Notes under the pieces: model-generated
The model's database searches: none
The model's input: only the letters and a program-made list of their open reading frames with translations
Told to the model about the DNA's origin: nothing
Shown: piece after piece, positions 1,872-2,198 of the stretch
Position numbering within the stretch: the stretch's first letter is position 1
How the letters are laid out: every line of letters begins with the position of its first letter
Assembly (NCBI GenBank): GCA_016782495.1
Contig: JADHYL010000001.1
Location: 1-32,359 of the forward strand
From: Candidatus Omnitrophota bacterium
Lineage (GTDB): Bacteria > Omnitrophota > Gorgyraeia > JABMRN01 > RBG-13-46-9
Direction of reading: 5' to 3'
DNA: 32,359 bases
Position numbers and translations under genes: made by a program

Positions 1872-2198
1872 TGGGGAGAGGAGGATTCGCACCTCCGTAG
1901 GCCAAAGGCCGCCAGATTTCAAGTGCCCTCAGGTTTCCTTGAGGCTTGGACTATCTCATCACCTTAGCTTCTTATCGCCTTAGGCGGTGGGCGCTTAGTC
2001 TCTGCACCTTCCCCACCCTTTTGAGAGATTGATCATTCCTCTTGGTAATCTCTCAAAAGGGTGGGGCTTGGCTCAGGATTACCTTAGGTTATTACCCCTT
2101 TAGGCTTCCCTGAGTTCACCCACTTTTACATCTCTCCTTTCGAAAAGACGCTGCGTTCTTACACAGTCTGGTCCGTTTGACTACTCCGGCATCTCCCC
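1872..2198 (-). tRNA. tyrU: tRNA-Tyr (anticodon GTA), class II, interrupted by a group I intron between positions 35 and 36
   Basis: Exon 1 is 2198..2163: GGGGAGATGCCGGAGTAGTCAAACGGACCAGACTGT. Exon 2 is 1919..1872: AAATCTGGCGGCCTTTGGCCTACGGAGGTGCGAATCCTCCTCTCCCCA. Joined, they give an 84-nt tRNA with a 7-bp acceptor (GGGGAGA/TCTCCCC), a 3-bp D-stem, anticodon stem CCAGA/TCTGG, loop CTGTAAA, long variable arm GGCC-TTT-GGCC and a T-arm. Position in the operon matches tyrU. Confidence 0.85.
1920..2162 (-). ncRNA. Group I intron (IC3-like, ORF-less, 243 nt) in the tRNA-Tyr anticodon loop
   Basis: The 5' exon ends in U and the intron ends in G (..GCACTTG). Recognisable pairings: P3 GTGGGTG/CGCCCAC, P4 CTCAGG/CCTGAG followed by CCAAGCC, P7 GACTA/TAGTC within GGTGCAGAGACTAAGCG...GATAGTCC, P8 CGCC-TAA-GGCG, P9 CCTCA-AGGAAACC-TGAGG. 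CCTAAG receptor-like motifs occur in P5 and P8, with GAAA-containing L2 and L9, as in the Azoarcus tRNA-Ile intron (compared from memory). Confidence 0.85.

Follow-up and report, generated by a model that had tools for sequence, protein, structure and literature searches.

The tRNA-Tyr gene of an uncultured Omnitrophota bacterium carries an adenosine at position 18 of its D-loop and a guanosine at position 55 of its T-loop, and the same two letters occur together in many of its relatives, both with and without the open reading frame (ORF) that overlaps the gene and both with and without the intron that splits it. Very likely, an inherited A18:G55 contact, next to an unchanged G19:C56, replaces the G18:pseudouridine-55 contact in a working and probably only tRNA-Tyr, independently of the ORF and of the intron. 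The gene lies in the window, by which we mean the whole stretch of 32,359 nucleotides that was analysed.

A split tRNA-Tyr gene with A18 and G55

The tRNA-Tyr gene belongs to a minus-strand tRNA cluster of the order Thr(UGU) - Tyr - Gly(UCC) - Thr(GGU), and its parts, together with those of the adjoining ORF, are the following:

2198..2163, minus strand: 5' exon of tRNA-Tyr(GUA), 36 nt, with the acceptor 5' strand, the D-arm and the 5' half of the anticodon arm through U35
2162..1920, minus strand: group I intron, 243 nt, splitting the anticodon between positions 35 and 36
1919..1872, minus strand: 3' exon of tRNA-Tyr, 48 nt, with A36 onward, the long variable arm, the T-arm, the acceptor 3' strand and discriminator A73
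2182, minus strand: A18 in the D-loop, replacing the near-universal G18, and also the middle base of the TAG stop of the ORF
1891..1885, minus strand: T-loop UGCGAAU, in which window position 1890 is G55 in place of U and C56 is kept
2181..2801, minus strand: ORF "HEG2", 206 aa, with an N-terminal helix-turn-helix and a putative LAGLIDADG-like domain
2183..2181, minus strand: TAG stop of HEG2, built from the tRNA bases U16, A18 and G19

The intron matches the Rfam model Intron_gpI (RF00028) with 97.1 bits and an E-value of 1.5e-24 over the full model length (1-253), and its boundaries fit a group I intron, as the 5' exon ends with ...CUGU and the intron with ...CUUG. The spliced exons form an 84-nt class II tRNA-Tyr(GUA) with a normal cloverleaf according to ARAGORN; being split, the unspliced gene escapes both ARAGORN and the Rfam tRNA model. 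CCA is not encoded in the 3' exon. The tRNA has the 7-bp acceptor stem, the long variable arm, the GUA anticodon and the discriminator A73 of a class II tRNA-Tyr, and it departs from this class only in the elbow, where A18 and G55 are found in a G18 G19/U55 C56 context of which G19 and C56 are kept. As all remaining features are present and as it is the sole tRNA-Tyr found, we still file it as tRNA-Tyr.

The D-loop of E. coli tRNA-Tyr is AGCGGCCAA. The D-loop of the window's tRNA-Tyr reads AGUAGUCAA, with A18 and G19, and is as long as the AGCGGCCAA and AGUGGCCAA loops of canonical Omnitrophota orthologues. The A at 2182 therefore is position 18, and G19 is kept. The T-loop core is UGCRA in every A18 tRNA-Tyr orthologue. 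The first-pass annotation had already recognized A18, G55 and the end of HEG2 inside the tRNA, and all three observations are correct.

Two further observations concern the surroundings of these bases. A long perfect hairpin inside the intron (window 2013-2064) is replaced by 3-17 other letters in related contigs, and this peripheral stem of the intron is thus variable in the population. An orphan tRNA 3' half at about 1000-1048, downstream of tRNA-Gly, was considered as a copy of the Tyr 3' exon and rejected, as its T-loop is the canonical TTCGATT.

Covariation of positions 18 and 55 in Omnitrophota tRNAs

The tRNA-Tyr gene was searched for in 61 relatives, and the exons were read for positions 18 and 55; all of these genomes are metagenome bins, in which a mis-binned contig is possible. 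Wherever both positions were readable in relatives from this Omnitrophota clade, A18 came together with G55 (16 of 16). Twelve of these genomes belong to the window's own family (f1), two to the sister family f2 (G014 and G015) and two to family f48 (G086 and G361). G18 together with U55 was found in twelve further genomes of the class, including G016 of f2 and G216 of f48, and a mixed state was not found in any tRNA-Tyr among the A18:G55 carriers and these twelve genomes. The occurrence is patchy by family, with three of four in f2 and two of three in f48. In a 401-genome class sample, the G55-type tRNA-Tyr 3' halves among the 150 of 294 matches listed came from f48 only, and an order-wide search added f1 and f2. 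The double change was very probably fixed in the ancestor of family f1 and its neighbours and then inherited, and A18:G55 is identical with or without the group I intron and with or without the upstream endonuclease-like ORF. Duplications were also seen: contig C48 of G009 contains the tRNA-Tyr 3' half twice (10840-10887 and 11007-11054, 167 nt apart), and the Thr-Tyr pair of G014 is present on two contigs, C78 and C105.

It had been noted in the first-pass annotation that, of the tRNAs, only the one overlapping an ORF has an altered elbow. This holds within the window, where the other four tRNAs all have GG D-loops and TTCGA T-loops, but not genome-wide, as tRNA-Cys(GCA) of the window's own genome (G000:C1:31-106) has A18 (AAGUAGCUAA) and G55 (UGCAACU) as well. 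The neighbours of this tRNA-Cys (locus L114/L115), tRNA-Leu(UAA) and tRNA-Val(GAC), are both canonical. In the single-contig relative G011, tRNA-Phe(GAA) has a D-loop with ...CUAGUAG... and the T-loop UGCAAAU; a scan of all tRNAs of both genomes showed that the remaining ones are canonical.

Within the order, tRNA-Cys has A18:G55 in nine of nine copies found, including that of G016, whose own tRNA-Tyr is canonical, and tRNA-Phe has it in ten of ten complete f1 copies and G18 in f2. When a class sample of 131 genomes was analysed, 18 of 91 tRNA-Cys genes were A18:G55, 73 were G18:U55 and none was mixed; the A18:G55 copies occur in at least three sequence backgrounds, and the tRNA-Cys genes of G045 and G079, which belong to one family, differ essentially at positions 18 and 55. 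In the same sample, tRNA-Phe was A18:G55 in 23 of 102 cases, G18:U55 in 71 and G18:C55 in 8, and nothing else was found. Such a tRNA-Phe with UCCGA and canonical G18 G19 occurs in G139, G044, G061, G120, G107, G042, G033 and G036, and also in G014 (L136), and C55 is thus a third state of position 55. In a phylum sample of 401 genomes, all 26 of 26 A18 copies of tRNA-Phe had G55, all of them in this class, and no A18-type tRNA-Phe was found among the 108 genomes of other classes. An anticodon-free pattern detected A18:G55 also in tRNA-Ile(GAU) of five genomes and in tRNA-Thr(CGU) of one (G113), and tRNA-Leu(UAA) has it in two (G406, G421). A restriction of A18:G55 to tRNAs for UNN codons (those with A36, i.e., Tyr, Phe, Cys and Leu-UAA) had been considered and was ruled out by the tRNA-Ile(GAU) and tRNA-Thr(CGU) cases.

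When tRNA-Tyr, Cys, Phe, Ile, Thr and Leu are taken together, G55 thus never accompanies G18 and, with a single exception, always accompanies A18. The exception is a tRNA-Thr(CGU) with A18:U55 (G079:C20:6176-6225), which is possibly an intermediate and shows that the 18:55 rule is not absolute. As six isoacceptor types are affected, the same double change arose in at least six tRNA genes. This pattern corresponds to a recurrent two-state switch in this Omnitrophota class, in which G18 goes with U55 (or C55) and A18 with G55.

An alternative that we consider improbable is a slippage of the D-loop, in which the A would be a spacer at position 17, the single G would take over the T-loop contact, and G55 would be unrelated. 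Precedents come from a high-throughput mutational screen of the yeast tRNA-Tyr suppressor SUP4oc, in which G18 and U55 tolerated no single mutation (PMC4117946, Guy et al. 2014). In this tRNA, neighbouring D-loop bases were able to take over the elbow contacts: U17G rescued G19U, and U20G was the sole rescue of G18A in the set of scored double mutants (PMC4117946). A different rescue route for the loss of G18 hence exists, and this counts against our reading of the pair. However, the D-loops of A-type and G-type orthologues are of the same length, the A co-varies with G55 in six isoacceptor types with one exception, and C56, the partner of G19, is invariant. We therefore favour a direct A18:G55 contact.

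The overlapping reading frame, the intron and their possible mobility

HEG2 terminates with ...GEMPE and the TAG stop, and its last five codons are the tRNA bases 1-15. Homologues with 47-70% identity are found at the same location in G007, G002, G010, G003, G033 and two named MAG contigs, with the same junction and in frame with tRNA base 1, and they end at whichever stop comes first. The stop at U16-A18-G19 is used only by the window genome (G000) and G007. In G003 and G010, C16 results in CAG, and the stop is a TAA 34 nt into the intron; the homologue of G033, where the tRNA has the canonical G18, continues to +109; a homologue at L032, on a contig labelled Planctomycetia, terminates in another frame, and that of G002 terminates before the tRNA. 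The ORF probably inserted exactly at the tRNA 5' end and reads until its first in-frame stop, and the use of U16-A18-G19 by the window genome and G007 is then chance.

The first-pass annotation had proposed a compensatory co-evolution driven by the overlap, i.e., that A18 was selected for the TAG stop of HEG2 and that G55 then compensated for it in the tRNA. In support of this, the ORF indeed ends at U16-A18-G19 in the window genome and in G007, and the elbow of this tRNA alone is altered within the window. As a check, it had been suggested to score positions 18 and 55 in orthologues that lack the ORF, and we found A18:G55 in 13 tRNA-Tyr orthologues without an ORF entering the tRNA (G011, G013, G001, G008, G012, G006, G005, G004, G009, G015, G014, G361 and G086), "without" meaning that there was neither an ORF longer than 47 aa that reaches into the tRNA in the frame of HEG2 nor a tblastn match to HEG2. 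Conversely, the G18 orthologue of G033 has the ORF. Homologues with C16 or G18 simply stop later, U16 is no commoner with the ORF (2/4) than without it (7/13), and the same double change is found in tRNA-Cys, Phe, Ile, Thr and Leu, none of which has such an overlap. As ORF-less orthologues share A18/G55, the link to the ORF is refuted, and a selection of A18 for the stop codon is to be regarded as highly improbable. What stands of the proposal is the compensatory co-evolution itself, since positions 18 and 55 co-vary in six isoacceptor types; the coding constraint as its cause does not.

The intron is equally dispensable for the pair, as 11 A18:G55 tRNA-Tyr genes have no intron, and in G008 and G005, which have neither intron nor ORF, the sequences corresponding to the 5' exon are 100% identical to that of the window's tRNA-Tyr. 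DNA contigs from the same metagenomes lack exactly the 243-nt intron (joint 1919->2163) or exactly the ORF (joint 2198->2814, skipping 615-617 letters, with 12-19 other letters between), and these contigs have no variant at site 18 or 55. Alleles with and without each of the two elements thus coexist.

Further arrangements of such ORFs were observed. A paralogous ORF of 237 aa (window 131-844, minus strand) lacks its own stop and extends across the entire tRNA-Thr(GGU) at 159-232, which is canonical; an overlap with a tRNA thus does not in itself entail an elbow change. At L005 (G033), the tRNA-Tyr 5' exon is present twice (830-865 and 1484-1519); the ORF homologue begins with an ATG immediately behind the first copy, precisely where the intron inserts, and continues in frame into the second copy, after which come the intron and the 3' exon. 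This arrangement suggests that the ORF first entered at the intron site. At L040 (G406), two classical double-motif LAGLIDADG ORFs (78-794 and 1282-1947) lie directly upstream of the A18:G55 tRNA-Leu(UAA), and endonuclease genes next to tRNA genes seem to be common in this phylum.

It is reasonable, though short of proof, to call HEG2 LAGLIDADG-like. A helix-turn-helix forms its N-terminus, and a PDB sequence-profile search gave helix-turn-helix proteins only. Weak matches to the Pfam family LAGLIDADG_3 (E-values 0.012-0.016) were obtained in paralogues only. An AlphaFold model of HEG2 had a pLDDT of 82, and the best structural matches of residues 61-201 were 7qsu (Z 8.0), I-DmoI (Z 6.4), E-DreI (Z 5.9) and WhiA (Z 5.6), which are middling scores; a Foldseek search of the PDB with the model gave no match at E <= 0.001.

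A free-standing homing endonuclease beside an ORF-less group I intron is known from the collaborative homing of cyanophage psbA. As in that system, the endonuclease-like ORF directly adjoins an intron-containing gene, and ORF-less and intron-less alleles coexist in the population. This comparison concerns the ORF and the intron and not the 18:55 pair, and HEG2 is a putative endonuclease whose fold assignment is of moderate strength. We also considered that the swap could protect the tRNA gene from the neighbouring endonuclease; this was set aside, as positions 18 and 55 lie outside the approximately 22-bp site at the ORF junction or the intron site and as ORF-less genomes retain the swap. It is conceivable, albeit rather unlikely, that the A18:G55 tRNA-Tyr allele moves between Omnitrophota lineages as a unit, being co-converted with the flanking exons during homing of the intron and/or the endonuclease gene into an intron-less gene. 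In the intron-less gene, positions 18 and 55 both lie no more than about 20 nt from the site where the intron inserts. If true, co-conversion would account for the patchy families and the absent intermediates, and it would mean that an essential tRNA can have an "invariant" tertiary pair rewritten by mobile elements.

A probably working tRNA and its proposed elbow contact

The first-pass annotation had offered a decaying tRNA as the other explanation, and one could indeed imagine a tRNA-Tyr that lost its function to the intron and the ORF and now drifts, as two "invariant" bases are altered and as the unspliced gene escapes the tRNA detection programs. The conservation of the structure speaks against this. 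In an alignment of 17 intron-less orthologues that included both 18:55 states, 24 of 24 secondary pairs and G19:C56 were paired in all 17 (100%), and 10 pairs were compensatory, with changes on both sides; A:G is not scored as a pair in this count, and the covariation of 18 and 55 was counted from sequence matches. The observed pairing values were reached in 0 of 500 shuffled controls, and slid controls were 35-53% paired. The exons are identical across genera, and the intron has a full-length group I match. The whole genome of G011 (1,432,423 bp, of which 10.7 kb were masked) was scanned for a second tRNA-Tyr; ARAGORN found 39 tRNAs, the intron-containing A18:G55 copy was the sole tRNA-Tyr in the DNA search, and no second one was detected by either method. 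The gene therefore does not qualify as a tRNA pseudogene, given its complete pairing, the compensatory changes and the lack of another tRNA-Tyr in G011, and we see hardly any room for decay. The window's own genome is a 460-kb bin that is 57% complete and may contain a second tRNA-Tyr, but the copy described here is probably the only one. From the conservation and from its being the only copy found, we infer that the window's tRNA-Tyr is functional. That either site, or both, reflects an error of assembly or sequencing is practically out of the question, as two independent metagenome studies yielded contigs of identical sequence over 1882-2188 and 2169-2861, with no variant at 1890 or 2182, and as more than 15 other genomes have the same two bases.

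In the canonical elbow, G18 is stacked between bases 57 and 58 and bonded to pseudouridine-55. For the tRNAs described here, we infer a contact in which A18 would still intercalate between the T-loop bases 57 and 58 and would form hydrogen bonds to G55. These tRNAs would thereby have switched from a tRNA-type contact to a generic T-loop contact, with the L-shape being kept, and A18:G55 is best read as an alternative working elbow pair, by analogy to other T-loops. The T-loops in FMN and cobalamin riboswitches nearly always have an adenosine as intercalating base and prefer a guanosine at position 2, and their consensus is YGNRA, with UGHAA being best (bioRxiv 10.1101/2022.12.26.521914). The adenosine is placed between positions 4 and 5 and forms two hydrogen bonds to the sugar edge of the guanosine at position 2 (bioRxiv 10.1101/2022.12.26.521914). 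Bases 54-58 of tRNA-Tyr are UGCGA and fit YGNRA with G at position 2, and UGCRA is found at 54-58 in every A18:G55 tRNA seen, irrespective of the isoacceptor.

The exchange has consequences for tRNA modification, as Gm18 and pseudouridine-55, which rank among the most widespread tRNA modifications, are formed at G18 and U55; neither is chemically possible in tRNAs with A18 and G55. Genes for TruB and MiaA are present in five of five family genomes tested; with TruB, the lineage still makes pseudouridine-55 on other tRNAs, and the A:G tRNAs go without it. G18 and U55 are taught as invariant, and G18 and G19 have been called "constant" (PMC9976931). In the literature, in which subscription journals were thinly covered, we found engineered mutants only and no natural tRNAs with A18:G55 or U55G/G18A.

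The strict natural covariation thus points to a second working solution for the elbow, A18:G55, which matches the grammar of riboswitch T-loops and which occurs in single-copy, presumably essential tRNAs and in at least six isoacceptor types. What is added here are the single-copy intron-containing tRNA-Tyr, the counts from family to class, and the explicit test against an overlapping ORF. A18:G55 offers a concrete letter pair for probing how the elbow is read by TruB, TrmH, RNase P, the ribosome and tRNA-targeting nucleases. We would like to emphasize that A18:G55 tRNA genes should not be annotated as pseudogenes, and that a stop codon that overlaps a rare tRNA base can be mere coincidence.

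With the canonical tRNA elbow, the elbow described here shares the purine at position 18, the G19:C56 pair, the letters U54 and A58 and the T-loop of 7 nt, and it differs in that 18:55 is A:G and not G:U. As in the slippage rescues of SUP4oc, a second change can make up for the loss of G18, but whereas U20G shifts a G within the D-loop, compensation here is on the T-loop side (U55G), and the length of the D-loop is unchanged. It resembles the T-loops of the FMN and cobalamin riboswitches in that UGCGA fits YGNRA and the partner base is an A; unlike in these riboswitches, the motif is part of a tRNA, where U at position 2 and an intercalating G are the rule, and its geometry is a predicted one.
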